Below, one piece after another: positions 10,357 to 39,976 of a stretch of DNA of 64,000 bases (within the stretch, counting starts at the first letter, position 1; each line of letters starts with the position of its first letter). The notes beneath the pieces are model-generated. The model had not been told where the DNA came from. It was given only the letters and a program-made list of their open reading frames with translations, and made no database searches. The position numbers were made by a program, and so were the translations under genes. The DNA comes from Lachnospiraceae bacterium (GTDB taxonomy: Bacteria; Bacillota; Clostridia; Lachnospirales; Lachnospiraceae): contig JAEEVO010000001.1 in assembly GCA_016290905.1 (NCBI GenBank), positions 61,412-125,411 on the forward strand, written 5' to 3'.

Positions 10357-11403
10357 ATGAAGAAAATAGTAACAGTATTGCTGATTTTGGTTATGGTAAC
10401 GGCGATTGCATCATGTGGTAAGAGTGAAGAGAAGAACGAGCCGGCAAAGACAGAAGAAGCAACAAAGACGCCTGAGGCAACAAAGACGCCGGAGGTTACC
10501 AAGGAAGCTGAAGAGACACCGAAGCCTGAGGTCACAAAGGAAGCAGAGGTCACAGAGGCACCCGAAGCAACGGATGCACCCGAAGTAACGGAAGCGCCTG
10601 AAGTTACAGATGAACCCGAGGTGCCTACAGCTACACCTGAACCGGTAACACCTGAGCCTACAGAGGCACCGGACATCAATGAAGAAGATGAGTTTTACAG
10701 TGCCGGACATGTATTCGAAGGAACTTATCAAAGCGATCAATGTACTCTGGTCGTTATGCCTGAGGGCGCAGCAGATATATTCCTGGTTTACAACGGAAAT
10801 AACATTAATAAAGAAGAATGGGAAGAATGGCTTGAATTATGGACCAATTATTCCGAAAACGATAAAACATTCTCTGCTGACGGCGGATATAAAAGGTATC
10901 AAAACGGAGAAAAAGACTATGAGAGACTTGAGGAACAGGTAAGCTTTGTTGTTTCCGGTGATAAGCTGGTATGGACTTCAAACGGCAATATGGAATTCGC
11001 CAAGGTTTCCGGTTCGGATGATCCGGAAGGAAACGAAGCAGAAGACGATGAATTCAATAATCCCGCACATGTGTACTGCGGAACCTGGAGCAGCGAAGGA
11101 TGTACTATGGAATTGATACCTGAAGGTTATGCAATAATAGTAAGGGTAGCCTTTGGTGAGGATGCCGCATCCAAAAGCTGGACAGAGTGGGAAGAGTACT
11201 CGGAGTACTGGGTAGAATTTTCCGAGGAAGATATGACTCTGCTCTGCGATGGTGATAATTACAGAGCTCATTTCGGAACAGGGGAAGACGGCGTTGAAGA
11301 ACTCTATGAAGAAGACCCTACATGCTTTGTAATAGAAAACAGCGGATCGGGCACAGTTATTTCATGGCCGGATAACAATATAACCTTTAATAAGGTTCCT
11401 TAA
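10357..11403 (+). CDS. Lipoprotein with Pro/Thr/Glu-rich linker and an internally duplicated domain
   Basis: 348 aa. Lipobox AIASC. TKTPEATKTPEVTKEAEETPKPEVTKEAEVTEAPEATDAPEVTEAPEVTDEPEV linker. Two paralogous halves (EDEFYSAGHVFEGTYQSDQCTLVVMPEG... and DDEFNNPAHVYCGTWSSEGCTMELIPEG...). Confidence 0.6.
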   Translation: MKKIVTVLLILVMVTAIASCGKSEEKNEPAKTEEATKTPEATKTPEVTKEAEETPKPEVTKEAEVTEAPEATDAPEVTEAPEVTDEPEVPTATPEPVTPEPTEAPDINEEDEFYSAGHVFEGTYQSDQCTLVVMPEGAADIFLVYNGNNINKEEWEEWLELWTNYSENDKTFSADGGYKRYQNGEKDYERLEEQVSFVVSGDKLVWTSNGNMEFAKVSGSDDPEGNEAEDDEFNNPAHVYCGTWSSEGCTMELIPEGYAIIVRVAFGEDAASKSWTEWEEYSEYWVEFSEEDMTLLCDGDNYRAHFGTGEDGVEELYEEDPTCFVIENSGSGTVISWPDNNITFNKVP

Positions 11404-11517: not shown

Positions 11518-11546
11518 TTGAAATATATTTGTAAAAATGTTATAAT
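11518..11546 (+). promoter_or_regulatory. SigA-type promoter candidate
   Basis: TTGAAA, 17 nt spacer, TATAAT, upstream of the methyltransferase gene. Confidence 0.45.
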
Positions 11547-11640: not shown

Positions 11641-12888
11641 ATGCGGGAGCTTATAGAAAAATATCTCTCGGAAGGCTTTGAATACGCAACGGCATCAAGT
11701 CCGCTGCCCATTGAGCCCGATCCCGATATATATACATATCTTAAGGACTGCAGTAAGCTCAAGATCAGACCGGTATTCATAAAGGGAAAGGATATGTTCC
11801 AGATAACCCGTACAGTAGGAGCAAAGGAGCTTCATGATAACATGGACCTTGAAAAGGCAGCGGCCTTATTGGAAAAGGCTGCCGGGAAACCGTTCAGGAA
11901 CATGGAGGTAGTAAACAGGGGCAGCAAGCTTACGGTTTTATCGAACAAAAAGGGACATACTACCGTTAAGGAGCATCATACAGGGCAGTTTAACAGGATC
12001 GGGGCAGAATGCAAAAATATTCGGGAAGACGGGGCTTTGGGGCTTGGATCCGGAAAGCCGTCACACAACCGTGAAAAAAAGCACATCCTTCGGGATGGGG
12101 TTCCGGTACCTTTTCTCGTTGAATTGGGAGTCATGACACCGTCAGGCAAAGTCATAGCTTCAAAATATGACAAATTCAGACAGATAAACAGGTATCTTGA
12201 ATTTATCGCAGATATCATTCCGGAACTTCCGAAAGATCGTGAGATATCAGTTATAGACTTCGGATGCGGTAAATCATATCTTACTTTTGCCATGTACTAT
12301 TATCTGCATGAAATGTCAGGGCTCGATGTAAACATAAAAGGACTTGATCTTAAGGAAGATGTTATTGATAAATGCAATCGTCTTGCTGAGCGGTTCGGAT
12401 ATGACAGGCTTTCGTTCAGTCAGGGGGATATTGCCGGTTATGAAAGCGGTACCCGTCCCGACATGGTAGTGACTCTTCATGCCTGTGATACCGCAACGGA
12501 TTATGCGCTTGAAAAGGCGGTGAAATGGGGAGCGTCGGTAATCTTATGCGTTCCCTGCTGTCAGCATGAGCTAAACCGCCAGATAAAGAATGACATACTT
12601 TCACCAATAATGAAATATGGGTTGTTAAAGGAACGGTTCGCCGCACTTCTGACAGACGGGCTAAGGGCAGAGATGCTTGAAGAAGCCGGATACAGGACGC
12701 AGATACTTGAATTCATCGATATGGAGCATACTCCGAAGAATATCCTTATCCGTGCCGTGAGGCAGCCTCTAAAGATAAAAAGACATACAGGATATGAAAA
12801 TACAGTAGAATTTATGCATGTAAAACCTACATTGCAGAAGCTTCTGTTTACCGGAACGGAAAAATATGAAGACAGGAATGAACACTAA
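11641..12888 (+). CDS. Class I SAM-dependent methyltransferase
   Basis: SAM motif I VIDFGCGKSYLTF followed by an acidic DLKED loop and LHACDTATD. ATG 11641 follows an ACGGAGG RBS (the track start 11617 is less likely). Confidence 0.75.
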   Translation: MRELIEKYLSEGFEYATASSPLPIEPDPDIYTYLKDCSKLKIRPVFIKGKDMFQITRTVGAKELHDNMDLEKAAALLEKAAGKPFRNMEVVNRGSKLTVLSNKKGHTTVKEHHTGQFNRIGAECKNIREDGALGLGSGKPSHNREKKHILRDGVPVPFLVELGVMTPSGKVIASKYDKFRQINRYLEFIADIIPELPKDREISVIDFGCGKSYLTFAMYYYLHEMSGLDVNIKGLDLKEDVIDKCNRLAERFGYDRLSFSQGDIAGYESGTRPDMVVTLHACDTATDYALEKAVKWGASVILCVPCCQHELNRQIKNDILSPIMKYGLLKERFAALLTDGLRAEMLEEAGYRTQILEFIDMEHTPKNILIRAVRQPLKIKRHTGYENTVEFMHVKPTLQKLLFTGTEKYEDRNEH

Positions 12889-15436
12889 AGCCAGGCATGG
12901 TGTCAGGCTGATTTATAAGATTTTGCTGGTGGTTGCAGTATTCATTGCGTCCCTGATATTCTTCGGCAGCGGTATAAAAGAAACATTGTTTAATAATGAA
13001 GAAGACATAACCACCATGAAAACGGCATCATTTCCCTTTATTTCCATGGAAGTGGCGGGATGTGAAATGAATCTTCTTCACGGATACGCCGCCAATCTTG
13101 ACAGTCAGGTCATAAGGGAATGCATAACACCGATAACAGAGGGAAGAAGCTTTACCGTGAATATTAAAGACGGAGAAAGCGATGTAAAAAAACTTAAGTA
13201 CGAGATTTTCAATCTTGACGGGAGACTCAAGGAGGAGGGGGATTATACCATTCTTGAGGATTCGGGAAAGAAAAGCGTTACAATAGACTTAAAGGAAATT
13301 TATGAGAGGGGAGCGGAATATATGCTCAAGATCACTCTCATAACCAATAAAAGCAGACGTGTTTATTATTACACGAGGATTAAGCTGTACGAAGACGGAA
13401 AACTGCAGGAGAAGCTTGATTTTATCATGAATTTCCACAGAAAGCTCCTGGATCCCAACGGAAAGAGAGCAGAGGATCTTATGGACTGGCTTGAACCGAA
13501 CAGAAGTACCGATCACTCTACTTTTGCAAGCGTTAATATCAAATCAAGGCTTAACATGGTTTCCTACGGTGATCTTTCACCGGTTGTAATCTGTGAGCAG
13601 CTTCCGACGGTAACCGAATTCTATGAGAATTATGCTTCGGTACGCATTGATTACATACTCGGAGTTGAAACTGGGTTCGGCACGGAATACTATCGCACGG
13701 AGGAGCATTACAGGATAGGTCTTTCGGGAAACAAGACATATCTCTATAACTATGAGAGAAGCATGGAGGAGCTCTTTGATCCGGAGAATTTTTCTGTTTC
13801 GAAGAGGGCTTTTAAACTCGGTATCTGCAACGAAGATTCGATAAACACCGCAATAAGCCCCGAAGGTAAGTATATGGCGTTTGTCTATGGCGGCGAGCTT
13901 TTGTTCTACGATCTTGAAAACAATACTGTGTCGATGGCGTTCTCGTTCAGAAGCCGTGAACGTGATTTTGAACGAGAGATATACAATAACTATAATATAA
14001 AAATTCTTAGGGTACAGGATGACGGTACCATGGACTTTTATGTCAGCGGATATATGAACGCCGGTGAATATGAGGGCAGGGTAGGTATGGTCCTTTACAC
14101 CTTTGACAATACGACGAAAACCAGGGAAGAAAGGCTGTATATGCCTATAAACAGTTCCCAGCAGGTATTTTCTTACGATCTTTCGGATTTTGCATATCTG
14201 GGAGACAAGCAGATATTCTATTTCTCTATTTACGACAGGATCTATGCGTATGATCTGGCATCGGCGGGACTGCAGGTAATTGCCGAGGGAGTTGACGCCG
14301 AAGAGATAGTATTCTGCGAGGAAGGAAATTATCTTGCGTGGAAAGAAAAAGGCAACAGTAAAAAGAAGGAAGCAATAAACATCCTTCACCTAGACAGTGA
14401 AAAACGTTACAGGATAGAGACTCCTGAAGACGGTATAAGGCTTTTCGGACGGATCAACGAAAACATCATTTACGGATTTGAGAAGTCCTCCGACGGGATA
14501 AAGCAGCGTGACGGTAGTATTGACAGACCGTGCTACACGCTTTTGATCGCGGACGGTACCGGCAAGATACTGAAGACCTATGATGAACAGGGCGTTTATA
14601 TTTCCGATGTGGAAATAGGTGAAAACATTATTACGATAAAGCGTGTCGTGAGGAACGACGAGCATGATAAGTATGATGAGATAGAAAGCGATACGATACT
14701 GAACAAGCTTGACAAAAGAGAGAATCCCATACCCGTAATAAAACAGGTGACAGACCGTATGCTTACGGAATATTATGTCGGGATCCCTGAGGGGGTGGAG
14801 ATTTCCGGGAAGCCTCAGATTGTAAGTGTGGGAAACCGGGTGCTTGACAAGGATACCATAGCCCGTATCAAGGAACCGGATGTTACTGAGAACAGGTATT
14901 ATTCCTATTCTTTCGGAAGGATTATAGAAGCAACCGAAAATGCGGCTGAGGCCATAGCGGTTTCTGACTTCAATGTCGGTACCGTTATCAACAGGGAAGG
15001 CCGGCTTATCTGGGAGCGAGGCATAAAGATGCCAAGGACCGAGATAAAAGGCTTAAAGGGGATAAAGGCTGACGAGAACTTAAGCCCGGTTCAGGCAGCC
15101 ATGAGCATGATTGCTGCATTCAGGGCATGTGAGCTGGATGTAAGCGGGTATGTTTCGGAAAACGAGAGTATTTATGATTTCCTGTGCCGGAACATGAAGC
15201 CTTCTGTTGTTGACATGACGGGAGCGGAGCTTGATGAGGTGTTGTACTGTGTATACAGACAGCATCCGGTCATTGCGGTAAGAGGAAACGGAGATATATG
15301 CGTTATTTATGCATATACTCCGACAGGAATAAAGGTTTACGATCCTTTGCTGGGCAGGAGTTTGGAAATAAATATAGCCGATGCAATAAAGGATTTTAAG
15401 ATGAGCGGAAACATATTCATAGGATATGTTGATTAA
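12866..15436 (+). CDS. Large membrane-anchored hypothetical protein
   Basis: 856 aa. Single N-terminal TM segment (LIYKILLVVAVFIASLIFFGSG) followed by a large, beta-rich extracytoplasmic region. I recognise no catalytic motif. Overlaps the upstream gene by 23 nt. Confidence 0.6.
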   Translation: MKTGMNTKARHGVRLIYKILLVVAVFIASLIFFGSGIKETLFNNEEDITTMKTASFPFISMEVAGCEMNLLHGYAANLDSQVIRECITPITEGRSFTVNIKDGESDVKKLKYEIFNLDGRLKEEGDYTILEDSGKKSVTIDLKEIYERGAEYMLKITLITNKSRRVYYYTRIKLYEDGKLQEKLDFIMNFHRKLLDPNGKRAEDLMDWLEPNRSTDHSTFASVNIKSRLNMVSYGDLSPVVICEQLPTVTEFYENYASVRIDYILGVETGFGTEYYRTEEHYRIGLSGNKTYLYNYERSMEELFDPENFSVSKRAFKLGICNEDSINTAISPEGKYMAFVYGGELLFYDLENNTVSMAFSFRSRERDFEREIYNNYNIKILRVQDDGTMDFYVSGYMNAGEYEGRVGMVLYTFDNTTKTREERLYMPINSSQQVFSYDLSDFAYLGDKQIFYFSIYDRIYAYDLASAGLQVIAEGVDAEEIVFCEEGNYLAWKEKGNSKKKEAINILHLDSEKRYRIETPEDGIRLFGRINENIIYGFEKSSDGIKQRDGSIDRPCYTLLIADGTGKILKTYDEQGVYISDVEIGENIITIKRVVRNDEHDKYDEIESDTILNKLDKRENPIPVIKQVTDRMLTEYYVGIPEGVEISGKPQIVSVGNRVLDKDTIARIKEPDVTENRYYSYSFGRIIEATENAAEAIAVSDFNVGTVINREGRLIWERGIKMPRTEIKGLKGIKADENLSPVQAAMSMIAAFRACELDVSGYVSENESIYDFLCRNMKPSVVDMTGAELDEVLYCVYRQHPVIAVRGNGDICVIYAYTPTGIKVYDPLLGRSLEINIADAIKDFKMSGNIFIGYVD

Positions 15437-16638: not shown

Positions 16639-17069
16639 GACTTGTGATTCAACGGGTGACATCGGCATCTGTTACTGTGGAGGACGATGTCATCGGAGAA
16701 ATAGGTAAGGGGTTTCTGGTATTTATCGGCATCGGAAAAGAAGACAATGAAGAAACTGTCAGAAAATATGCCGATAAGATGATGAAACTTCGTATTTTTG
16801 AGGATGAAAACGGGAAAACGAACCTTTCTTTGGCACAGGTAAAAGGTGAACTGCTTCTTATCTCGCAGTTTACATTATATGCGGACTGCAGTTCAAACCG
16901 TCCCGGCTTTACACAGGCCGCTGCTCCGGCGGAGGCAGAAAGGCTTTATGATTATTTTGTCAGATACTGTAGGGAAAAAGAGGTCGCTTCTAAGGTAGAA
17001 CAGGGAAGCTTTGGTGCGGACATGAAAGTGGCGCTTTTGAACGACGGACCGTTTACGATAATACTTTGA
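16635..17069 (+). CDS. dtd: D-aminoacyl-tRNA deacylase
   Basis: 144 aa. [15 protein letters not shown]...GFLVFIGIG...ISQFTLYAD...[20 protein letters not shown] overlap with deoB. Confidence 0.9.
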
Positions 17070-17104
17070 TGAACGGTACAAAAATGAATTTACAGGAGAA
17101 TGCC

Positions 17105-19690
17105 ATGAAAAGAGAAACCACCGGCCTTGTTTATACAAATGACAGATGTATCGGATGTAACCGATGCATAATGGTATGTCCGGTCCAGGGAGCCAACAGA
17201 TCGGTAATATCCGAAGGAAAGAATAAAATACTTGTCGATCCTTCAAAATGCATACATTGCGGAAACTGTATCAGGGAATGCCGCCATCAGGCAAGGGATT
17301 ACATAGATGATACGGAAGCATTCATAAAAGATCTCGGAAATGAGAATATTTCCATAATAATCGCACCGTCATTCTTTGTTTTATATCCTTATACCTGTGG
17401 AAAGGTCATTAATTTCCTGCTTGATAACGGGATAAACTGTGCTTATGACGGAAGCCGGGGCGCGGATATAGCCCTGTGGGCGGCTTTGAAGTTTTTTGAT
17501 GAGCATCCGGAGGGGGGATACATATTCCAGACCTGTCCTTCTTTCGTAAATTTTGTAAGAACTTTTTCCAAGGAGATGCTTGAAAGGATAATACCTGTTC
17601 AGTCTCCGCCCGTATGTCTTGCAAAATATATCCATAAATATCTGAACAATAATGACAAGATAGCGTTTATAGGTCCGTGTATCGCAAAGAAGGATGAATT
17701 TGATTCTCCGGAGACGAACGGTGAGATATCCTATAACATTACCTATGACCATCTTATTAAGGCAATAGGTGATATAGATATCAGCGGGTATTCGAACGAT
17801 TTTGAAGGAAGAATGTATACGTTAGGCTCGGTTGTAGGGATCGTCGGGGGTATAAAGAGAAACCTTTCGAGATTCATTCCCGAGGATAAGTTTATTCTTT
17901 CTGTGGATAACGGAGTTTATTATCTTCCGTATTACGAGTATTACGAGAATCAGATGTTTAATGATGTTAACGCTCCTTTCGCGACAGATATAAACATCTG
18001 TGAACACGGTTGTATCGCCGGTCCGGGCACTGAGCGCATAGGACGAAATCTGGCAGAGATTGCCAGGGATTATGTAAAACTGAAGTCTGATGCGGTTGCA
18101 AAAAATCCTGAGCTTTATTCGGGGAAAAAGGACTATACGGAAAGAAAGAAGGCTCTTTATGAGATTTTTAAAGAGCTTGATCCCAAAGATTTTGAGAGGA
18201 AGTTTACCGGGAAATTTGTAAGGAAACAGACCATACCTCAGAGCGTTATAGATGAAACCTTCAACAACATGTATAAACCTTCCGCTTCAGACAGATGTAT
18301 AGACTGTGGTTCGTGCGGATACGGTACCTGCCGTGAGATGGCTGAGGCTATAGCACTCGGATATAACCGCAGGGAAAACTGCGTTTATTTCGAGAGAGAA
18401 GAGAACAAGAGACTGTATCTGACGGATATTGTGACAGGCATACCTAATGTCAGTTATTTTAACGCAAGGCTTGCAGAGATAATCAAGAGCGATCAGGGCG
18501 GAAAATATGCGGTCGTATCCTTCTCTTTAAGCGGATGGGAACTTTTGAACGAACGTTTTACATATGCTGAGGGCGACAAGACTATCATAGAATATGCATC
18601 CATTGTTGAAAAGCTTGCAAAGGAAGATGAGCTTGTGGCACATCACGGCGGCGTCGATTTTCTTGCGGTCATAAATAAAGAGAGGCTGGAGCAGTTCCTT
18701 AATGATATCCAGAGCATAGTTGTTCATCCGAATGACGGTTTGAAGGAAATAGATTATCCGGTATCCGTTACCGCGGGAATATATATGATGAATGATTATG
18801 AACGTCTGGCAGGAACCGTTATCGGACGTACAAATATCGCCGCGGCAAATGCAAAGGAAGGCGGGGCTAATATCATAATCTATGACCAGAGCATGAAAGA
18901 GCAGCTGCTGGAAACAATACAGATGATAAAGGCCTTTCCGGAAGCACTTAAAAAGTGCGAATTTCAGGTATATTATCAGCCCAAAATTGATACCGTTACC
19001 TCGATGATGCACGGAGCTGAGGCATTGGTACGATGGAAGATAAAGAAGGAACTGGTGTCTCCGGCAAAGTTCATTCCGCTTTTTGAGAAGAACGGGCTTA
19101 TCTGTCATCTTGATTTCTATATGCTTGAACATGTATGTCAGGATATAAGGAGATGGATAGACAGCGGTCTTGTACCGGTATGCATAAGCGTAAACTTCTC
19201 TAAGATACACTTTAAGGAAATGACCTTTGTTCAGGAGATTAAGAGAATAGTTGATAAATATGAGATACCTCATGAATATATCGAGATAGAGATAACTGAA
19301 AGCGCATATGAAGAGACAAAGGAAAACCTGAGGACCATTTTAAGAGAGCTTAACGTAATGGGATTTTCGACATCGATAGATGATTTCGGAGCAGGTTACT
19401 CTTCACTTAATCTTCTTTCGCAGTTTGATTTCCAGGTTCTCAAGCTTGATAAGGCTTTCCTTGATTCGGGAATAGAAGAGGAAAAGGTAAAGAATGTTGT
19501 TGACAGCGTTATTTCAATGGCAAAGAAGCTCGACATGAAGGTTGTTGCCGAAGGTGTTGAAAGACGGGAGGAGCTTGAACTGCTTCGAAAACTGTCCTGC
19601 GATCTTATACAGGGTTATTATTTTGACAGACCCATACCTACGGAGGATTTTGAGAAGAGATTGAGGATACCCGATTATTACAGGATCTGA
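17105..19690 (+). CDS. Sensory [FeFe]-hydrogenase-like (HydS-type) protein fused to a degenerate GGDEF and an EAL c-di-GMP phosphodiesterase domain
   Basis: Two ferredoxin motifs (CIGCNRCIMVCP, CIHCGNCIRECR). H-domain motifs FQTCPSF, IGPCIAKKDE and INICEHGCIAGPG. CIDCGSCGYGTCREMAEAIALGYNRRENC Fe-S motif. GGDEF-like domain carrying GGVDF. EAL motifs EALVRW, EIEITE, DDFGAGYSS, KLDKAF, EGVE and QGYYF. ATG 17105 follows a GGAG RBS. Confidence 0.8.
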   Translation: MKRETTGLVYTNDRCIGCNRCIMVCPVQGANRSVISEGKNKILVDPSKCIHCGNCIRECRHQARDYIDDTEAFIKDLGNENISIIIAPSFFVLYPYTCGKVINFLLDNGINCAYDGSRGADIALWAALKFFDEHPEGGYIFQTCPSFVNFVRTFSKEMLERIIPVQSPPVCLAKYIHKYLNNNDKIAFIGPCIAKKDEFDSPETNGEISYNITYDHLIKAIGDIDISGYSNDFEGRMYTLGSVVGIVGGIKRNLSRFIPEDKFILSVDNGVYYLPYYEYYENQMFNDVNAPFATDINICEHGCIAGPGTERIGRNLAEIARDYVKLKSDAVAKNPELYSGKKDYTERKKALYEIFKELDPKDFERKFTGKFVRKQTIPQSVIDETFNNMYKPSASDRCIDCGSCGYGTCREMAEAIALGYNRRENCVYFEREENKRLYLTDIVTGIPNVSYFNARLAEIIKSDQGGKYAVVSFSLSGWELLNERFTYAEGDKTIIEYASIVEKLAKEDELVAHHGGVDFLAVINKERLEQFLNDIQSIVVHPNDGLKEIDYPVSVTAGIYMMNDYERLAGTVIGRTNIAAANAKEGGANIIIYDQSMKEQLLETIQMIKAFPEALKKCEFQVYYQPKIDTVTSMMHGAEALVRWKIKKELVSPAKFIPLFEKNGLICHLDFYMLEHVCQDIRRWIDSGLVPVCISVNFSKIHFKEMTFVQEIKRIVDKYEIPHEYIEIEITESAYEETKENLRTILRELNVMGFSTSIDDFGAGYSSLNLLSQFDFQVLKLDKAFLDSGIEEEKVKNVVDSVISMAKKLDMKVVAEGVERREELELLRKLSCDLIQGYYFDRPIPTEDFEKRLRIPDYYRI

Positions 19691-19752
19691 AGTTGGCAAT
19701 GCAATTGAAAGGCATTTTGCTGCTTGGTATATACACAAAGAAAGGAGTATAT

Positions 19753-22464
19753 ATGAATCCAGAGAATAATGAAAGCAGAACCGGTGTTACAGGTGAACCG
19801 CAGTATGAGGAATTTCCTGCCGACGGTCAGGTATATAATGCCGAACCCGTCGCGTATGCCGAGGCTGTTGCGGAACCGGTGGCTGAAGCGGTAGCTGAGC
19901 CGGTTTTTGCCGAGCCTGTGGCAGAGTTTGTAGTTGAGCCTGTCGTAGAAGCAGTGGCTGAACCCGTAGCGGAGTTTGCAGCAGAGCCTGTAGCGGAAGC
20001 AGTGGCTGAACCCGTAGCGGAGTTTGTTGCAGAGCCCGTAGCGGAAGCAGTGGCTGAACCCAAAGCGGAGTTTGTTGCAGAGCCTGTAGCGGAAGCAGTA
20101 GCTGAACCCGTAGCGGAGTTTACAGCCGAGCCTGTTGCAGAAGCAGTGGCCGAACCTGTAGCGGAGTTTGTAGCTGAGCCTGTGACCGAGACGGATGCTG
20201 AGCCTTTGTTTGCAAGACATACCGCAGAACCGGTTTATGCCTATCCGGAGCAGCAGACTGCGCCTGTTCAGGAACAGAATAACGGGTACAACAACGGTTA
20301 TCCGTCAGAAAACAACGGATATGCGGTTGCGGAATATAATGCACCGGTACAGGACAATAATAATCCTACAGTAAATCCGCCGGAAAAAGGTAAGAAAAAG
20401 AAAGAAAAGAAAACAGATGGTAATTCTGTGCCGAAAAAGAAAGGGGGAGCTCTCCCTGCCATAATCGTTTCGATAGTGGCTGTCCTGATCATAGGAGCAC
20501 TTTGTTTCTTCGGCTGGAAGGAATTGGATAAAAAGGATTCGCAGTTAAAACAGAAGGATACCGAATTCGAAGAAAAGACTGCGGAACTCACGCAGAAATC
20601 GGAAGAACTTGATAAAAAGACTTCCGAACTGGCTCAGAAGGAAGAAGAACTTAAAAAAGCCTTAGAAGAGAAAAGCCGGATTGAAACCGAAAGAGATCAG
20701 CTTTTGGCTGCGGACGCTGAACGTAAGCAGAAAGAAGAAGAGGCAGCAAAAGCCGATAACGGAGAAAAAGACGCCATTAACAATATGATCCGTCTTATGG
20801 ACAGAACGGAGGACCTGATTGCTAAAGTAGGAACCGAATTTAACAGGAATCCGAGTACTGTATCCGAATATGAAGTGATAAAAAACACCATTGGCGGATA
20901 TAATAACGAAATGGGCGCCTATATAAATGAATTTAATACGCTTACCGGTATTCCCCAGAATTTCCGTGACGCGGGAAAAGAATTCCTTGATTCTACAAAG
21001 GATTCTATTTCATCTACTCATGAACTGTTAGAATTTCTGATAGATTATCTAAAAATCACGGAAATGTTCCAGGATGTATATGATATGAATAATCTGAGCC
21101 GCTCATATGAGAATGCCGAGAAGTTCATCACGCTCATGGAAAGCTCAAAGGTGCCGGCATACATAAAGCCTATCTGGGACAGATGGAAAGATTCTATGGA
21201 AATCTCCAAAGAGGTATTAAAGAGGGTATATGAAGCTCAGACTGCTGGTGATTATCTGAGATTATCTTCTGCAAGCAATCTGCTTAACCGTCAGGTACAG
21301 ATCATAAAAAATCTGATCAATGAAATGAGTGAGGTTGTGGACAGTGAGTTTGATTTCCTTAAGAACAGACAGCAGTATGCAGCAGGTCTCGTCGATCAGG
21401 CCAGATCGGCGGTTGAGCTTGACCCGGAAGCAAGGAAGGCCTACAAATTCAACTTTGATCAAAAAGGAGAAATGGTCTTAAATTATAAGGTAAAGGATGA
21501 GATATATCCTTCTCTCTATAATTCCTATAACTATGTCATATATGTGGAGGCAGGCTGTTACGGAGAGTCAAAGGATATCGTGGTTGAGTGTGAGATACCC
21601 GGACTGACACAGAAATTTGAAAACTCTTACAGGCTTGATTCGCTTGTAACACCCATCTATATTAAGCCTGTAGCGGTTGAAAGCACTCAGGATCTCAGCG
21701 TTGCATGGGATTCGACTGTGAAGATCACCGTCAAAGACAAGCAGGGCAATCTTCTTGATACCAAGTCATTCCCTGTTCATATCTGCAGCGAGAACGATTT
21801 CAAATGGTTTGATGATGAGTTTGGTGTTGCTACAAGGGATAACATCCTTTGTTTCCTGACACCTCAGTCTGAAGCAGTAACCCAGCTCAAACGTGATGCC
21901 ATAGATATCCTTTCCGTTTGGACCGACGGTAAGGTTTCGGGAATTTATGGATATCAGGGGCCTGTATATGATACGTACACTGATACATATATTCAGGCAG
22001 CTGCTCTTATGTATGCTTTGTCAAATATGGGCGTCAGATATAACAATGATAATTTCTCGATTGACGGAGCAGGTCAGCATATATTGTTCCCTGCACAGGT
22101 TCTTGAGAGTAAAACGGGTCTTTGTATAGAAACCTCGCTTGTTATAGCAAGTGCGCTTCAGAGTGCGGGCTTCCACACATACCTGATATTCCCGCCCGGA
22201 CATGCACAGGTAGCAGTAGAGACATGGGAAGGCTCAGGGGAGTATTTCCTGGTTGAAACGACAAAACTTCCGTGCGATGAGGACAGTATCATTGATTATG
22301 CAAATGCAATACTGAGCGGAGATATTTCGGGAGTCAGCGGAAGCGATGCTCCGGTTACTTATCTTAACAAAGAAGAATGGGCAGGATACTTAAGCAACAG
22401 TGTTGTTTATCATATAGACTGCAGTGACGGAAAACTTCTGGGTCTCACACCGTTTGCCAGATAA
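19753..22464 (+). CDS. Membrane-anchored repeat protein with C-terminal transglutaminase-like (papain-fold) core
   Basis: ATG 19753 after an AAAGGAG RBS. AEPVAEAVAEPVAEFV tandem repeats. TM segment ALPAIIVSIVAVLIIGALCFFGW. K/E coiled coil. C-terminal TGLCIETSLVIASALQSAGFHTYLIFPPGHAQVAVE resembles the Cys...His core of transglutaminase-like domains. Confidence 0.65.
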   Translation: MNPENNESRTGVTGEPQYEEFPADGQVYNAEPVAYAEAVAEPVAEAVAEPVFAEPVAEFVVEPVVEAVAEPVAEFAAEPVAEAVAEPVAEFVAEPVAEAVAEPKAEFVAEPVAEAVAEPVAEFTAEPVAEAVAEPVAEFVAEPVTETDAEPLFARHTAEPVYAYPEQQTAPVQEQNNGYNNGYPSENNGYAVAEYNAPVQDNNNPTVNPPEKGKKKKEKKTDGNSVPKKKGGALPAIIVSIVAVLIIGALCFFGWKELDKKDSQLKQKDTEFEEKTAELTQKSEELDKKTSELAQKEEELKKALEEKSRIETERDQLLAADAERKQKEEEAAKADNGEKDAINNMIRLMDRTEDLIAKVGTEFNRNPSTVSEYEVIKNTIGGYNNEMGAYINEFNTLTGIPQNFRDAGKEFLDSTKDSISSTHELLEFLIDYLKITEMFQDVYDMNNLSRSYENAEKFITLMESSKVPAYIKPIWDRWKDSMEISKEVLKRVYEAQTAGDYLRLSSASNLLNRQVQIIKNLINEMSEVVDSEFDFLKNRQQYAAGLVDQARSAVELDPEARKAYKFNFDQKGEMVLNYKVKDEIYPSLYNSYNYVIYVEAGCYGESKDIVVECEIPGLTQKFENSYRLDSLVTPIYIKPVAVESTQDLSVAWDSTVKITVKDKQGNLLDTKSFPVHICSENDFKWFDDEFGVATRDNILCFLTPQSEAVTQLKRDAIDILSVWTDGKVSGIYGYQGPVYDTYTDTYIQAAALMYALSNMGVRYNNDNFSIDGAGQHILFPAQVLESKTGLCIETSLVIASALQSAGFHTYLIFPPGHAQVAVETWEGSGEYFLVETTKLPCDEDSIIDYANAILSGDISGVSGSDAPVTYLNKEEWAGYLSNSVVYHIDCSDGKLLGLTPFAR
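19840..20205 (+). repeat. In-frame 48-nt tandem repeat (16-aa unit AEPVAEAVAEPVAEFV)
   Basis: Five near-identical 48-nt units at 19951-19998, 19999-20046, 20047-20094, 20095-20142 and 20143-20190. More degenerate units lie 5' of them (19840-19950). Confidence 0.85.
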
Positions 22465-22503
22465 AAGAAAATCCTTGCAATTTTATGTAGTATAATATAT
22501 AAT

Positions 22504-22543
22504 GAACTGGTGCAGATGAAGATCGGCACCAGTTCAATTTTTT
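22504..22543 (+). terminator. Intrinsic terminator of the repeat-protein gene
   Basis: Perfect 10-bp stem GAACTGGTGC / GCACCAGTTC followed by AATTTTTT, 40 nt after the stop at 22464. Confidence 0.6.
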
Positions 22544-22564
22544 GGGTAAGAAGGGAGAATAATT

Positions 22565-23107
22565 ATGGCAAAATATGTTTGTAGTGTATGCGGTTATGTA
22601 TTTGAGGGAGATGCGGCACCTGCGGAGTGTCCCGTATGCCATGCGCCTGCAGAAAAGTTCAATAAGCAGGAAGGCGAGCTTACATGGGCAGCAGAGCATG
22701 TTGTCGGTGTGGCAAAGGGTGTCAGCGAAGATATATTAAATGATTTAAGAGCAAACTTTAACGGAGAGTGTTCAGAAGTCGGTATGTATCTGGCTATGTC
22801 CAGAGTAGCATTCCGTGAGGGATATCCCGAGATTGGTCTTTATTGGGAAAAGGCCGCTTACGAAGAGGCAGAGCATGCAGCTAAGTTTGCAGAACTGTTA
22901 GGCGAGGTAGTTACCGATTCAACAAAGAAGAATCTTGAGATGCGTATAGAAGCAGAGAATGGAGCAACAGCAGGAAAGACTGATCTTGCAAAGCGTGCGA
23001 AAGCTGCAAACCTTGACGCAATCCATGATACGGTTCATGAGATGGCAAGGGATGAGGCAAGACACGGCAAGGCATTCGAAGGACTTTACAAGAGGTATTT
23101 CGGATAA
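22565..23107 (+). CDS. rbr: Reverse rubrerythrin (N-terminal rubredoxin-like domain plus ferritin-like di-iron domain)
   Basis: 180 aa. CSVCGY...CPVCHAP rubredoxin motif at the N-terminus. ExxH di-iron motifs ([18 protein letters not shown]) in the C-terminal four-helix part. Confidence 0.9.
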
Positions 23108-23153
23108 GCTTAAGTCTTTGTTAAAAGACTTGAAAATCAGGTTTTGAAAGCAT

Positions 23154-23199
23154 AAGGGCACATATCTGTCATACGCAGGTATGGGCCCTTTTATTTTTT
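23154..23199 (+). terminator. Intrinsic terminator of rbr
   Basis: AAGGGC...GCCCTT outer stem with inner CATATCTG/CAGGTATG pairing, followed by TTATTTTTT. Confidence 0.6.
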
Positions 23200-23328
23200 C
23201 TACCCTGTCAAGAAATAACATCTTAAACACAATATAGTAAATTGCCTATACTATTACTCTCTATTACACTATTAAATGGAGATTTATATGATCCTGATCT
23301 GCCGTTATTATGCGGTATGGAGGTAGTA

Positions 23329-25746
23329 ATGAAAAAAGGAATATTTTCCAAAGCGGTTTTAAAACTGCTTGAAGAAAACGGAATAAAAGAAGACGACATA
23401 TTTGCGGCTTCGCCCGTCGATATGAATACGGAATGTGAATATGCCGACGGATTTGTGGTGGTGACGCTTGAAAAACTGGCGATCATCACATCACCGCCGG
23501 ATATCACCGAGGTTCGTTCATTTAAAGGCTATATGACCAAGCAGACTCCGTTGCAGAAGGATGAGAAGCAGTGGGCGTTGAAGCTGTATGAGCTTGATAA
23601 AGTGGAAGCCTTAAAGACAGAGCTTCAGGTGGCATGCAGCGTTCTGGTAGCGGATATTGACGGTATAACTTACAGACTTATCGCATTCTCAAATCTATAC
23701 AAGAGAGAGATGCATAAGCTGATAAGAACATTTGACCGTTTAAGTGCCGAGCTTAAGAGTGGTGATAAAAAAGAAGGCGGTCCCGGCGGAGAATTTAAAA
23801 AGGATGAGGATAGCGGATTATCAAAGGAAGAACGTCTTGAAAAGATAAAGACCTACGGTAAGGAAGAGGAAGGCGAGAAAAACGAATACTGTCCTATTTG
23901 CGGCATGATGTATCCCGACAGGAGCAGAAAGGTATGTCCGAGATGTATGGACAGGAAATCAATCTTTTTCAGGGTGCTCGGATATTTCAAGCCTTACAGA
24001 GGCAGGATAGCGGTCATGTTTACATGCTATATCCTGACTTCGCTTTTAAATCTGGTATGGCCCTATCTTAACGGTACGATCCTTTATGATAAGGTTCTTG
24101 CAAAGAACAATGAGTTTTTAAAACAGTTCGGCATAGAGGACAGTAAGTACATTACAGCCCTGTTGATGGTGGTTCTCACGATGCTTATGACAAGGGTTAC
24201 GCTCATTTTCATAAATATGCTTCAGGGTGTATTTGCAGCTAAGATAGTTACCGGTGTTGTATGTGACATGAAAAAGAGCATTTTCGGGAATATGGGAAAG
24301 CTGTCGATAAGCTTTTTCAGATCACGTCAGACGGGAAGTCTTATGACGCGTGTCATGAGTGATGCGGACAGAGTTACGGGTTTCTTCATAGACGGATGTC
24401 CTTACATATTTATTAACGGACTGATGATCATCGTTTCACTGGTAATGATGTTCAGTATAAAGTGGCAGATGACACTTATGGTCATTTTCATTATGCCTTT
24501 CGTAATGCTTATAGGCTTGAAGCTGAGACCTAAGGTTTGGACTCAGTTCGGACACAGGCACAGAGCCGAGCGTGCGGTAAACAGCCAGGTAAACGATAAC
24601 CTGACCGGAGCCAGGGTTGTAAAGGCTTTCGGGCAGGAGAACAGGGAGACAAACAGATTTGAGAAGAATAACCTAAGGTTAAGGGATGCCGAGATGAGCA
24701 TCGTCGGGACGCAGAATCTTGTAAGAGGTTCTTACTCGGGCATATTTGAGTTCCTGAATATTTCTGTATGGCTTATCGGTGTTTATCTGATAATGGTAGC
24801 AGGAGAGATAGAGCTTGGAGTACTCATTACTTTTGTAGGTTATATAGGACAGCTCCAGGGTCCCATAAACTTTTTCTCGAGAATATTCCACTGGTGGGCC
24901 GACAGTATGAACAGTGCCCAGAGAATGTTTGAGATAATTGATTCCGTACCGGAGATCAGAGAGGCGGAAAATCCCAAGACACTCGAGGATCCTAAGGGAA
25001 GGATAGAGTTAAAGAATGTATCCTTCGGATATGAGGTAAACCGTCCTGTTTTAAAGGAACTTAATCTTGAAATAAAGGAAGGCAGCATGCTGGGGATCGT
25101 AGGACGTTCCGGTGCGGGAAAGACCACGCTGGTAAACCTTATCTCGAGAATGTATGATCCGCAGGAGGGACAGATACTTATTGACGGTACCGATATAAAG
25201 GATCTGTCGTTCAAGTCCTTAAGAAGAAACGTTGCGATGGTTTCTCAGGAGACCTATATATTCATGGGAACCGTTGAGGAAAACATAGCGTATGCTAATC
25301 CTTCGGCTTCACATGCCGATGTTATACGTGCGGCTAAGCTTGCGAGTGCTCATGAATTCATAATGAGGATGCCCGACGGGTACGATACCAGGATAGGTTC
25401 CTCGGGCAGGGAGCTTTCGGGCGGAGAGAAGCAGCGAATTTCAATAGCAAGAGCGATACTCTCAAATCCCAAGATACTGATACTCGATGAAGCAACAGCT
25501 TCTGTTGATACTGAAACCGAGAGGGATATACAAAGATCGATCGCATATCTTATAAAGGGAAGGACGACGATATCCATAGCGCACAGGCTTTCAACCTTAA
25601 AGGATGCGGACTATCTTGTCGTAATAGATAACGGGAAGATAACGGAACGCGGAACCCACAAGGAGCTTGAGGAGCTTAAAGGAACGTATTTCAAGCTTAT
25701 GGAACTGCAGCGTAAGGCGCTGTCACTTAGAGGCGTTATGGAATAG
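23329..25746 (+). CDS. ABC exporter half-transporter (TMD-NBD) with about 230-aa N-terminal PH-like plus zinc-ribbon module
   Basis: ATG 23329 after a GGAGG RBS. N-terminal ADGFVVVTLEKLAIITS and CPICGMMYPDRSRKVCPRC. Six-helix exporter TMD. Walker A GRSGAGKTT, signature LSGGEKQR, Walker B ILILDEATS. Confidence 0.85.
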   Translation: MKKGIFSKAVLKLLEENGIKEDDIFAASPVDMNTECEYADGFVVVTLEKLAIITSPPDITEVRSFKGYMTKQTPLQKDEKQWALKLYELDKVEALKTELQVACSVLVADIDGITYRLIAFSNLYKREMHKLIRTFDRLSAELKSGDKKEGGPGGEFKKDEDSGLSKEERLEKIKTYGKEEEGEKNEYCPICGMMYPDRSRKVCPRCMDRKSIFFRVLGYFKPYRGRIAVMFTCYILTSLLNLVWPYLNGTILYDKVLAKNNEFLKQFGIEDSKYITALLMVVLTMLMTRVTLIFINMLQGVFAAKIVTGVVCDMKKSIFGNMGKLSISFFRSRQTGSLMTRVMSDADRVTGFFIDGCPYIFINGLMIIVSLVMMFSIKWQMTLMVIFIMPFVMLIGLKLRPKVWTQFGHRHRAERAVNSQVNDNLTGARVVKAFGQENRETNRFEKNNLRLRDAEMSIVGTQNLVRGSYSGIFEFLNISVWLIGVYLIMVAGEIELGVLITFVGYIGQLQGPINFFSRIFHWWADSMNSAQRMFEIIDSVPEIREAENPKTLEDPKGRIELKNVSFGYEVNRPVLKELNLEIKEGSMLGIVGRSGAGKTTLVNLISRMYDPQEGQILIDGTDIKDLSFKSLRRNVAMVSQETYIFMGTVEENIAYANPSASHADVIRAAKLASAHEFIMRMPDGYDTRIGSSGRELSGGEKQRISIARAILSNPKILILDEATASVDTETERDIQRSIAYLIKGRTTISIAHRLSTLKDADYLVVIDNGKITERGTHKELEELKGTYFKLMELQRKALSLRGVME

Positions 25747-36521: not shown

Positions 36522-36608
36522 TCTGTAAATGGTTGTTCATAACAGGCTTATCGGGAAAGGAAAAAAGGTTCGTTTCCCGGAGAAATGAATTATGAGGTGA
36601 CAAACTAT

Positions 36609-37355
36609 ATGAGAAAGATAGCAATATACGGAAAAGGCGGAATAGGAAAATCGACTACGGTTTCGAATGTGGCTGTAGCCCTAAGCAGGAAGGGTTATAA
36701 GGTCATGCAGATAGGCTGTGATCCCAAGGCTGATTCAACCATGGCACTCAGGAAGGATAAGGAGATAAAAACGGTGCTCGATCTTATCCGGGAGAAAAAG
36801 AATGACTTTGATCATACGGATATGGTGACGGTAGGCGCGGAAGGCGTGCTGTGTGTTGAAGCGGGCGGACCTACGCCGGGAGTAGGATGTGCCGGAAGAG
36901 GTATAATAGCGGCACTTGACAAGCTGAAAGAAAAAGGAGCCTACGAAATATATAAACCTGATATCGTATTATACGATGTTCTCGGAGATGTTGTGTGCGG
37001 CGGATTTTCAATGCCTATGCATGCAGGCTACGCCGACTGCGTATATATTGTAACCTCGGGAGAAAACATGGCGATACATGCAGCTGCAAACATAGCAATG
37101 GCCATAGATAATTTCAGGTCGAGAGGATATGCTTCACTGGGCGGGCTGATACTAAACCATCGCGATGTTAAGAATGAAAGACAGAAGGTAGAAGAGCTTG
37201 CCTCGGACTTTAATACTCAGATTATAGGTGAGCTTACCCGAAGCGAAACGGTAAGCCTTGCAGAGGAACTCGGAAAGACTGTCATGGAAGCATTCCCCGA
37301 CAGTGACATGGCAAGAGAATATGAAGCGCTTGCGGATAAGCTTATAGGATATTAA
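36609..37355 (+). CDS. NifH/BchL/CfbC-family nitrogenase-like reductase ATPase (Fe-protein homolog)
   Basis: [18 protein letters not shown]-loop, switch [10 protein letters not shown], cluster ligands in VGCAGRGII and [11 protein letters not shown] (switch II). Confidence 0.9.
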
Positions 37356-37464: not shown

Positions 37465-38832
37465 ATGCTGAAAAGAGTTGGAAATAAAGAAATAACTGAA
37501 GACGGTTCAGTGATAAGACTGGGGGATTCGGTTTTTCCCGCACCTTTTAAAAGCGGGCTTGAATATGCTTCGCCGGCAAGAGGAACTTGGAACATTGTAC
37601 ATACGGGTATGCTCGTCCCGGAAACACATGAGATATTCGTTTGCGCGGCAAGCTGTTTGAGGGGTGTGGTGCTTACGGCTGCAGAGATGGATGCCATGGA
37701 CAGATTTTCGACCGTTGAGGTACGCGAAAACAACCTATTGGAAGGAAATCTTGAGGAACTGTTGATCGATGGGGTAAGCGACATCATAGTAAAGCTTGGG
37801 CAAAAACCGCCCGCAGTTCTTGTTTACACAAGCTGTGTGCATCATTTTACGGGATGCGACTGGAAGGTCATGTTCGGAACTTTAAGAGAAAGGTTTCCGG
37901 ATATTGATTTTGTCGACTGCTATATGAACCCGACGTTGAGAAAGAGCGGGCTTACTCCGGATCAGATTATGCGTAGGCAGCTTTATTCACTGCTTAAACC
38001 TCGCAAAACGAACAGGAACGCTGCGGCAATAATAGGAAACGACCTGCCGACAAACAAGAACTCTGAGATTATTTCCGTTCTTAAGAAGTGCGGGATGAAG
38101 CTCCATGAGATAACCTCCTGCAAAACGTATGAAGAATACCAGGAGATGGCGGAGAGCAGTTTTTATATAAGCTATTATCCTTCCGCACGTGCGGGTGGGG
38201 ACGAACTTGAAAAGAGACTTGGCGGGAAACACATATATCTTTCTTACAGCTGGGATTATGATAAGATAACGGATGCTCTTAACCGGCTTGAAATGCTGAT
38301 GAGCGAAAACAAAGAAGATGATGCTTTTGAAAGCTTAAATGGATTTGTAAAAGAAAAGGCGGAATGCGAGAAGGCGTTTGACGAAGCCTTAAAGCTTATC
38401 GGGGATACTCCGATTGCGATAGATTACACATTTTGCCCGAGTATTACAACTGTTGCAAAAGCTCTCCTTGAACATGGCTTTAATGTCAGAAGGCTGTATG
38501 TGGACAGTTTCATAGGAGAAGAGAAGGAGGAATATAACTTCCTTAAGGAAAAATATCCCGAACTGATGCTTTATGCGACGGTCAATACCAAGTCAAGGTT
38601 CATGGCTCCGACCGGTGGCAGCGTGAGTGAAAAATGGCTTGCGATAGGTCAGAAAGCGGCATATTTCCTGGGTACGGAAAATTTTGTCAACATTGTCGAG
38701 GGCGGCGGCATGTTCGGTTTTGAGGCTGTGAAAGACACCTTGGAGCTTATGAAGGAAGCGTTTCTTAACGAAAAGGACATGAGAAAACTTGTACAGATAA
38801 AGGGTATGGGCTGCGGTTGCTGCGGTGAATGA
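37465..38832 (+). CDS. Nitrogenase component-1-type oxidoreductase, NifD/E-like subunit
   Basis: 455 aa. General Oxidored_nitro layout with Cys in IFVCAASCLRG and VYTSCVHHFTGCD. Unusual C-terminal GMGCGCCGE tail. Position directly after the NifH-like gene. Confidence 0.7.
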   Translation: MLKRVGNKEITEDGSVIRLGDSVFPAPFKSGLEYASPARGTWNIVHTGMLVPETHEIFVCAASCLRGVVLTAAEMDAMDRFSTVEVRENNLLEGNLEELLIDGVSDIIVKLGQKPPAVLVYTSCVHHFTGCDWKVMFGTLRERFPDIDFVDCYMNPTLRKSGLTPDQIMRRQLYSLLKPRKTNRNAAAIIGNDLPTNKNSEIISVLKKCGMKLHEITSCKTYEEYQEMAESSFYISYYPSARAGGDELEKRLGGKHIYLSYSWDYDKITDALNRLEMLMSENKEDDAFESLNGFVKEKAECEKAFDEALKLIGDTPIAIDYTFCPSITTVAKALLEHGFNVRRLYVDSFIGEEKEEYNFLKEKYPELMLYATVNTKSRFMAPTGGSVSEKWLAIGQKAAYFLGTENFVNIVEGGGMFGFEAVKDTLELMKEAFLNEKDMRKLVQIKGMGCGCCGE

Positions 38833-39976
38833 AAGGAGAAAGGATTTGAAACAGACTTCGGGATTTATATCCACGTATTCCGCTGATACATTCGGCGTAT
38901 GTTCGGCTTTGTTTGAGCTTGGCGGCATGGTGGTCATGCATGATGCTTCCGGATGTAACTCGACATATACGACGCATGATGAGCCGCGCTGGTATGATAT
39001 GGACAGCATGGTCTATATTTCCGGACTTACTGAGATAGAAGCGATAATGGGTGATGATGCAAAACTGATAGCAGATATTACGGAAGCGGCAAAAGAACTC
39101 AGTCCCAGATTCATTGCCATAGTGGGAACACCGATCCCCGCCATGACGGGCTTTGATTTTGACGCTGCCTCGGCAGTGATAACGGCTGAAACCGGGATAC
39201 CGGCGTACGGTTTTAAGACTACCGGTATGAGATCGTATATTTACGGAGCCGGAGAGGCATTCCTTAGGATTGCCGACTGTATGGTAAACAGGAATATAAC
39301 AAGATCGGAGAATCAGTCGGTGAATATCCTTGGGCTCACACCTCTTGATTTTTCGATAAACAAAAGTGCGGAATCCATTATCGGTCATTATGCGAAAAAG
39401 GGATATGATATCATTTCGACATGGGCCATGGGGTGCACGTTGGAGGATATGAAAAAAGCAGGAGGCGCGCATATGAATCTGGTTGTTTCCGAGACGGGAC
39501 TCCCGGCGGCCGTGCGATTAAAGGAACTGTTTGGTACGCCTTATTCGGTAGGTGTACCCGTTGGAGGAGAGGATATCGATATAACGGACATGTATCCGGC
39601 AGGAGATCCGGAAAAGAACAGATCGGCTGTTTTTTCGTCAGGAGACGGGGATGTTAAGGTGCTGATAATAGGTGAGGGCGTTTCCTCAAAATCACTTGCT
39701 AAATACCTGAATATAAAGACAGGCAGGAGCGTTGCTTCACTTACCGCCACAGACTTAAGCGAGGATGAGATATCAGAGACGATAAACGGTTATAAGAACC
39801 TGGAAACGGTTATCGCAGATCCGCTTTTTAAACCTTTGTGCAAATCATACGGAGATGAAAAAGGGATGAGCTTTGTCTCTCTTCCTCATGAAGCGTTTTC
39901 GGGAAGATTGTACAGGAAAGACATACCGGATCTTATAAAAGATGCAAACGAAATACTTAAAAGTATTCGGAAATAA
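38825..39976 (+). CDS. Nitrogenase component-1-type oxidoreductase, NifK/N-like subunit
   Basis: 383 aa from GTG 38825. The alternative TTG 38846 lies 7 nt after an AGGAG RBS and is at least as likely. ADTFGVCSALFELGGMVVMHDASGCNSTY and AIVGTPIPAMTGFD resemble the NifK/NifN/BchB-type N-terminal regions. Confidence 0.65.
   Translation: MNERRKDLKQTSGFISTYSADTFGVCSALFELGGMVVMHDASGCNSTYTTHDEPRWYDMDSMVYISGLTEIEAIMGDDAKLIADITEAAKELSPRFIAIVGTPIPAMTGFDFDAASAVITAETGIPAYGFKTTGMRSYIYGAGEAFLRIADCMVNRNITRSENQSVNILGLTPLDFSINKSAESIIGHYAKKGYDIISTWAMGCTLEDMKKAGGAHMNLVVSETGLPAAVRLKELFGTPYSVGVPVGGEDIDITDMYPAGDPEKNRSAVFSSGDGDVKVLIIGEGVSSKSLAKYLNIKTGRSVASLTATDLSEDEISETINGYKNLETVIADPLFKPLCKSYGDEKGMSFVSLPHEAFSGRLYRKDIPDLIKDANEILKSIRK

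Follow-up and report, generated by a model that had tools for sequence, protein, structure and literature searches.

HydDB separates [FeFe]-hydrogenase classes linked to histidine kinases (C1), to methyl-accepting chemotaxis proteins (MCPs; C2, "chemotactic") and to phosphatases (C3), and it gives a diguanylate cyclase link only for the [NiFe] group 2c enzymes, which are putative H2 sensors (PMC5037454). For the sensory-type [FeFe]-hydrogenases of groups C and D, reviews and recent primary papers describe only a PAS domain or no output domain. A C-terminal iron-sulfur (Fe-S) cluster motif, Cx2Cx4Cx16C, is common to the sensory classes M2e and M2f (PMC8163306, PMC13104023). It is acknowledged as an open question whether group C and D enzymes sense H2 and by what route a signal exits the H-domain (PMC8924675, PMC8163306, PMC13104023). 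Described here is a gene from a 64,000-nt stretch of the Lachnospiraceae bacterium contig JAEEVO010000001.1 (the whole stretch is referred to as the window), whose product carries, in this order, two [4Fe-4S] ferredoxin motifs, an [FeFe]-hydrogenase H-domain, a Cx2Cx4Cx16C Fe-S domain, a degenerate GGDEF domain and an intact EAL domain, i.e., the phosphodiesterase domain that acts on cyclic di-GMP (c-di-GMP). An earlier note, made from the letters of the window alone, had proposed this domain order and a possible control of c-di-GMP by H2 or redox state.

The domain order is confirmed, and the Pfam E-values (Table 1) show that the domain matches are real and rule out chance. The motifs quoted in the earlier note lie where it placed them in the amino acid (aa) sequence, with CPSF at 144-147, PCIAKK at 191-196, CEHGC at 299-303 and GGVDF at 515-519, and a motif check likewise finds EALVRW, EIEITE, DDFGAGYSS, KLD, EGVE and QGY as quoted. 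Both of the ferredoxin CxxCxxCxxxCP motifs that it claimed are present, with the exception of the trailing Pro of the second, which reads CIHCGNCIRECR and ends in CR. No Pfam PAS match is found in the protein at E <= 0.1, so the claim that no PAS domain stands between the hydrogenase-like module and the GGDEF domain is upheld. In an AlphaFold2 (AF2) model of the full-length protein (mean predicted local distance difference test score, pLDDT, 90.7; predicted template modeling score, pTM, 0.69) the modules are joined by continuous helices, one of which is the linker listed in Table 1 and the second of which, aa 595-616, leads into the EAL domain.

The long open reading frame (ORF) of the window extends from 17066 to 19690 on the forward strand, and the start codon is placed at the ATG at 17105. 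An AGGAG sequence, similar to a Shine-Dalgarno box, is found at 17094-17098, 6 nt 5′ of this ATG, and the closest homologues, P0001 and P0121, have their N-termini at the corresponding position (1-860 against 1-864 in the case of P0121). An alternative ATG at 17069, which overlaps the dtd stop codon by 1 nt, would give a protein of 873 aa and is the start used by public gene callers on metagenome contigs L087 and L088. The domain content is identical with either start.

The H-domain scores 74.2 bits against a Pfam cutoff of 22.1. HMMER alignments with the solved hydrogenases CbA5H, TmHydA (T. maritima HydA) and TkHydA (T. kivui HydA1) place T143 and C144 on the Cys pair of TSCCP, G190-P-C192-I-A-K195-K-D-E198 on MPCIAKKxE, and N297-I-C299-x3-C303 on M-A-C-x3-C. 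Thus the four H-cluster Cys and the Lys of the CxxK motif are retained and aligned as the note had stated: C144, C192, C299 and C303 correspond to CpI C300, C355, C499 and C503, and K195 and E198 to CpI K358 and E361. A87-P88-S89 is also present. A single continuous alignment (E 2e-27) joins CpI 139-555 to a profile built from 54 sensor homologues. The structural comparison leads to the same assignment. An AF2 model of aa 1-440 has a pLDDT of 91.4 and a pTM of 0.91, and the 50 best listed Foldseek matches in the PDB, CbA5H, TmHydA, DdH and CpI among them, are all [FeFe]-hydrogenases (probability 1.0, TMq 0.58-0.67); the PDB set compared contains no group C or group D structure.

Three positions around the H-cluster differ from those of CpI. 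The equivalents of C299, M353 and M497 are T143, G190 and N297, which are the Thr, Gly and Asn that the earlier note had read at the Cys of TSCCP, the Met of MPC and the Met of ExMxC. In putative sensory enzymes the C299 position is unconserved (Ala about 43%, Pro and Ser about 10% each), the M353 position is Gly in about 51%, Ser in about 32% and Thr in about 17%, and the M497 position is variable (PMC10055695). The three residues fit, as would be expected, the substitution spectrum of putative sensory hydrogenases (PMC10055695, PMC8163306). Two natural alleles, L089 and L091, encode Ser in place of G190 (codon 17672-17674), at the equivalent of CpI M353. Sensory hydrogenases most often have Gly or Ser here, so the G190S change may tune the H-cluster within the population.

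The H-domain is followed by C401-x2-C404-x4-C409-x16-C426, in agreement with the extra cluster motif of the original reading, and a further Cys, C398, lies just N-terminal of it. The GGDEF domain begins 14 residues past C426. The eight Cys of the ferredoxin domain are invariant in alignments A1 and A2, and the four Cys of the C-terminal motif are invariant in alignment A2. Across 53 MCP-, GGDEF- and PAS-linked sensor homologues, 27 H-domain positions do not vary, and the protein keeps all of them. By its motifs, domain order and relatives, the N-terminal half (aa 1-430) is therefore assigned as a putative sensory-type [FeFe]-hydrogenase, a placement supported by relatedness to MCP-, GGDEF- and PAS-linked homologues, which were the sequences compared. 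The description of this half as HydS-like stands with respect to the substitutions and the additional cluster, but the nearest relatives that have no EAL domain are MCP-linked, of the C2 "chemotactic" type, and not HydS proteins of the PAS type.

End-to-end alignments of the C-terminal half (aa 431-850) are obtained with MorA (E 1e-57) and with DosP (PDB 9cmf, E 5e-50). The best NCBIfam match is DosP (NF008467, E 9e-74), which covers the GGDEF-EAL part only and scores 248.8 bits against an equivalog cutoff of 857; the protein is therefore not a DosP ortholog. The GGDEF domain had been considered probably inactive from its GGVDF motif. Alignment with the active GGDEF domain of MorA shows a degeneration that goes further: the Asp pair that binds metal has changed from DxD to SxS, FK to WE and PNR to PNV, and the RxxD I-site is absent. 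The domain is predicted from these changes to be catalytically dead, but it is confidently folded in the full-length model (pLDDT about 89-96). The EAL domain, in alignment with MorA and DosP, has the complete catalytic set that was claimed for it (E639/R643, N697, E729/E732, D759/D760, K780, E816, Q836 and the loop-6 DFGAGYSS), and these residues are invariant or nearly invariant in alignment A2. Thus it is a putative c-di-GMP phosphodiesterase that appears catalytically complete.

These two sets of changes bear on the reading of the protein as a metabolic hydrogenase with incidental signaling domains, or as a bifunctional diguanylate cyclase/phosphodiesterase. The fold and ligands of the H-domain are present and a GGDEF domain is detected, as either would have it. 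However Thr takes the place of the proton-relay Cys and neither framing Met is kept, which in the characterized sensory enzymes is accompanied by low turnover; no partner hydrogenase subunits are found nearby, and the active site of the cyclase is destroyed by GGVDF, by the change of DxD to SxS and by that of Lys to Glu. Very little credence can be given to this reading.

Homologues were collected in two ways. A word-indexed search with the N-terminal half gave 502 homologues, of which the best 120 were used for counts of output domains, but it missed the full-length family; this was found only by phmmer, run exhaustively against 1.84 billion representatives. A profile scan of genome contigs by way of the EAL pattern [ASE][MIL]DDFG[STA]GY returned ordinary GGDEF-EAL proteins. 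In the phmmer search at least 46 clusters at 50% identity match the full protein end to end in one stretch, so that the domain-architecture survey suggested with the first reading shows that the protein is not unique. The best full-length relative is P0121, with 51% identity. Fe_hyd_lg_C, GGDEF and EAL are all found in each of the 47 aligned full-length sequences, which come from Firmicutes-like metagenome contigs and from Treponema, i.e., from two phyla. The equivalents of C300 and C355 are invariant in the family and those of C499 and C503 are present in 45-46 of the 47; the C299 equivalent is never Cys, and 46 of the 47 have Ser, Gly or Thr at the M353 position. The GGDEF motif is degenerate in most members and the EAL residues are nearly invariant. 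A PAS domain is added in 13 of the 47. In the one that was checked, P0131, it is C-terminal to the EAL domain; Treponema proteins of this type (about 1134-1193 aa) have about 290 extra residues after the EAL domain, with PAS at about aa 1040-1130 in P0131, an unusual position for a PAS domain.

Outside of this family the sensor module is found with other outputs. Among the best 120 matches, it is fused to an MCP signaling domain in 101 (35-41% identity, many from Lachnospiraceae metagenome-assembled genomes, MAGs), to an intact GGDEF domain (RTGGDEF) in 11 and to PAS in one. The repeated fusion to MCP, GGDEF and GGDEF-EAL outputs appears typical of a portable sensor module. The eleven clusters with the intact RTGGDEF motif (P0100-P0116, 585-611 aa) have the same sensor module and no EAL domain; these putative hydrogenase-type sensors would drive c-di-GMP synthesis, the opposite of the output considered here. 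A possible fusion to HD-GYP in P0097 was not used; a truncated HD region lies there on the N-terminal side and the C-terminus is incomplete, and the fusion may be an artefact of gene calling. In a rough neighbor-joining (NJ) tree about 40 GGDEF-EAL sensors, including the one from the window, form a single long-branched clade. Five other GGDEF-EAL sensors nest among the MCP-linked ones, and three of the five, P0158, P0159 and P0171, keep an intact GGDEF motif. As GGDEF-EAL sensors are found in separate places of the tree, the fusion arose more than once.

The conservation of the family also bears on the possibility that the phosphodiesterase is constitutive or regulated by other means, with the hydrogenase-like half retained as a relic or as a scaffold for dimerization or stability. 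The long branches of the GGDEF-EAL clade would be in keeping with this, as would the faster divergence of the sensor half compared with its neighbors (61% versus 80-92% identity in contig L001). Against it, the family has conserved all 16 cluster-ligand Cys (20 when the C-terminal cluster is counted) and kept the architecture across at least 46 clusters in two phyla, and the N-terminal half is under purifying selection, with non-synonymous changes between alleles that are few and conservative. The counts for the gene as a whole are 42 synonymous and seven non-synonymous differences between natural alleles, and thus the gene is under purifying selection. The relic or scaffold explanation is considered improbable. 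It should be noted that the gene appears split in L089 (605 + 280 aa). Pseudogenization was rejected as the cause; the break is a run of N in the scaffold.

We lean, with modest confidence, towards a function as a soluble cytoplasmic c-di-GMP phosphodiesterase that is regulated by H2 or by redox state. The input module, aa 1-430, would consist of a relay pair of [4Fe-4S] clusters, an H-domain that can accommodate a [4Fe-4S]-[2Fe] H-cluster but devoid of the Cys for fast proton relay, and the further [4Fe-4S] domain of the Cx2Cx4Cx16C type, which would complete it. The conformation of the H-domain and of the C-terminal Fe-S domain would be altered when H2 binds or is turned over at the H-cluster, or by the redox poise along the chain of clusters. 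This change may pass through helix 427-439 into the inactive GGDEF domain, which would act as an adaptor, and from there through helix 595-616 to set the activity of the EAL phosphodiesterase. The resulting shift in c-di-GMP level would influence the choice between motility and attachment. In this scheme we infer that a [2Fe] subcluster is present and that H2 acts as signal, as well as the allosteric coupling with its sign and the physiological output.

Several observations weigh against such a function. The window ORFs of 150 aa or more include no hydE, hydF or hydG gene and no other hydrogenase gene, and at four related loci neither maturase nor hydrogenase genes are seen within 10 kb; we therefore only infer insertion of the [2Fe] subcluster. 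The K358 equivalent is kept in 23 of the 47 GGDEF-EAL members and lost in 24, and in several members no more than 12-19 of the 27 conserved H-domain positions survive, so that some relatives may no longer bind a di-iron site. H2 does not reduce the C-terminal TamHydS cluster (PMC13104023), which makes a simple redox relay to the output doubtful, and the sensory role of HydS has little direct physiological evidence (PMC8924675).

The chief alternative is a sensor of Fe-S redox state, O2 or reactive oxygen species that has no di-iron subcluster, the H-domain holding only a [4Fe-4S] cubane in the manner of hydrogenase-like proteins of the Nar1/NARF type. The four clusters would then report the redox state of the ferredoxin pool, or exposure to oxidants, to the EAL domain. 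The absence of maturase genes among the window ORFs, the erosion of the K358 equivalent and of other second-sphere residues in many members of the clade, and the unresponsiveness of the TamHydS C-terminal cluster to H2 all favor it, as does a rubrerythrin gene near the sensor gene both in the window (22565-23107) and in contig L001. However the protein from the window keeps K195, E198, A-P-S, CP and C-x3-C together with the full set of 27 H-domain positions, and 26-27 of them are found in P0121, P0122 and P0124, the nearest relatives. The rubrerythrin linkage could also be the conserved gene order of close species, the gene being 92% identical, but the arrangement is inverted. A sensor that has Fe-S clusters only is thus somewhat unlikely, and the regulation by H2 or redox state outlined above is preferred. 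For the family as a whole, we propose an unrecognized subgroup of sensory [FeFe]-hydrogenases whose members, in Treponema and in Firmicutes of the gut and rumen, would be c-di-GMP phosphodiesterases gated by H2. This wider proposal is tentative, and we hold it to be possible rather than probable.

In a full-text literature search no paper was found that links an [FeFe]-hydrogenase domain with GGDEF or EAL, in agreement with the earlier statement that such an output is not known to have been characterized for sensory hydrogenases, and an earlier mention in older papers is possible. Treponemal hydrogenase-like sensors were reportedly linked by Ballor, Paulsen and Leadbetter in 2012 to phosphorelay or methylation and not to c-di-GMP. 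There is a gap in annotation as well, as the publicly named members of the family are labeled only "EAL domain-containing protein [Treponema sp.]". Examples of family members from Treponema sp. are WP_318660597.1, WP_407434536.1 and MCQ2582535.1. The studied models TmHydS and TamHydS are without a measurable output, whereas the protein described here has the sensor in one chain with an enzyme whose predicted reaction, from c-di-GMP to pGpG, can be assayed easily. If the proposed function is correct, a single polypeptide with a quantifiable output would be well suited to report on whether HydS-type proteins sense H2 and how they do so. The ambient partial pressure of H2 would be tied directly to the motile/sessile decision in gut and rumen Firmicutes and Treponema, and H2, a central intermediate of anaerobic gut ecosystems, would be added to O2 and NO as a gas that controls c-di-GMP. 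This would complement the MCP-linked paralogs, which suggest chemotaxis to H2.

Table 1. Positions of the sensor-phosphodiesterase gene and its domains in the window, and of FIST genes on related contigs.
Feature	Position	Strand	Basis or location
Whole gene, 861-aa putative sensor-phosphodiesterase	17105..19690	+	ORF list, AGGAG box, homologue N-termini
N-terminal F-domain, two [4Fe-4S] motifs (C15, C18, C21, C25; C49, C52, C55, C59)	17129..17293	+	Pfam Fer4 x2, aa 9-63
[FeFe]-hydrogenase H-domain PF02906 (Fe_hyd_lg_C), aa 84-307	17354..18025	+	Pfam E 1.6e-20
C-terminal accessory Fe-S domain PF04060, aa 400-428	18302..18388	+	Pfam E 5.9e-8, Cys motif
Linker helix, aa 427-439, from last cluster Cys to GGDEF-like domain	18383..18421	+	DSSP, two AF2 models
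Degenerate GGDEF domain, aa 440-589; GGVDF at 18647-18661	18422..18871	+	Pfam E 4.9e-12
EAL c-di-GMP phosphodiesterase domain (putative), aa 610-843	18932..19633	+	Pfam E 4e-66
FIST/FIST_C gene	L082 8807-9940, likewise L083, L084; L094 and L095 8787-9992		upstream of sensor gene

The sensor gene is preceded by deoB and dtd and followed by a gene for a 923-aa repeat-rich membrane protein and then by the rubrerythrin gene. The same gene order is found in metagenome contigs with nearly identical alleles, and the locus is also present in JGI metagenome 3300041004 and in GCA_016295295.1. RF1 of the window is matched at 100% identity in NCBI and JGI metagenome assemblies (JAMQYI010615216.1), and among named relatives those nearest to it are Lachnospiraceae MAGs (82-85%) and Anaerocolumna (80%). 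The ORF of 923 aa (19693-22464, forward strand) starts 3 nt past the stop codon of the sensor gene, is kept downstream of it in L087 and L088, and is probably co-transcribed with it. It has a 48-bp tandem repeat (5.4 copies, 19924-20183) that encodes acidic repeats of the AEPVAE type, as well as a coiled coil, a transmembrane segment and a C-terminus with weak similarity to transglutaminase (Pfam E 0.008). Two ORFs without a Pfam match even at E 0.1, of 856 aa (12866-15436) and 348 aa (10357-11403), both on the forward strand, lie upstream in what appears to be the transcription unit of the sensor gene and are conserved in L087. Consensus scans give a promoter candidate at 11518 and no convincing one before 22475; this signal is weak and is not relied on.

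Contig L001 was compared with positions 17105-25746 of the window. The rubrerythrin is 92% identical, an ABC transporter 80% and the sensor homologue 61%, with the gene order inverted; the sensor of L001 may represent either fast evolution or replacement by a paralog. In two distant members of the family, P0121 and Treponema P0299, a FIST/FIST_C gene lies directly 5′ of the gene for the sensor-GGDEF-EAL protein (Table 1). No such gene is present in the window. FIST is the family of the haem NO sensor NosP, and its position points to a possible second input, by gas or ligand, in some lineages. Elsewhere in the window, between 34464 and 41133 on the forward strand, a nitrogenase-like trio of genes (NifH-like, 36585-37355; Oxidored_nitro, 37465-38832 and 38825-39976) is set among FecCD permease, ABC ATPase and Peripla_BP_2 genes, an arrangement that differs from the canonical nif cluster.

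Of the known systems, those of group C (TmHydS, M2f) and group D (TamHydS, M2e) share with the protein described here the N-terminal pair of [4Fe-4S] clusters, the full set of H-cluster ligands, the lack of C299, a small residue at the M353 position, a variable M497 position and the C-terminal Cx2Cx4Cx16C cluster. At the C299 position Thr is found here, whereas Ala is the more common residue in groups C and D. Group C proteins have a PAS domain after the cluster, which is missing here, and group D enzymes stand alone. By contrast, in the present protein the Fe-S domain passes directly into GGDEF-EAL. Group C and D genes are also often linked to an operon for a group A hydrogenase, which is seen neither among the 64 kb window's ORFs of 150 aa or more nor within 10 kb of the four related loci. 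The C2 "chemotactic" MCP-linked sensors of HydDB are the closest proteins outside of the family, with 35-41% identity over 96-99% of the N-terminal half. They have the same Fer4/H-domain/PF04060 order and most are from Lachnospiraceae MAGs, but they lie in a clade apart from most GGDEF-EAL fusions in the rough NJ tree, and their MCP domain feeds chemotaxis, whereas the output here would be c-di-GMP hydrolysis.

The [NiFe] group 2c enzymes represent the same idea, a hydrogenase-type sensor that is proposed to regulate c-di-GMP, but the metal centre and the protein family are unrelated, and separate cyclase genes serve synthesis there, whereas a single-chain fusion would serve hydrolysis here. 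In its C-terminal half the protein is closest in organization to DosP, the direct oxygen sensor phosphodiesterase of Escherichia coli, in which a haem-PAS sensor of O2 is followed by a degenerate GGDEF domain and EAL. This half aligns end to end with DosP and with proteins of the MorA/RbdA type, and the DosP-like logic of a gas sensor, a degenerate GGDEF domain and an active EAL domain would apply, with a hydrogenase-like module of four clusters as the input in place of the haem-PAS of DosP.

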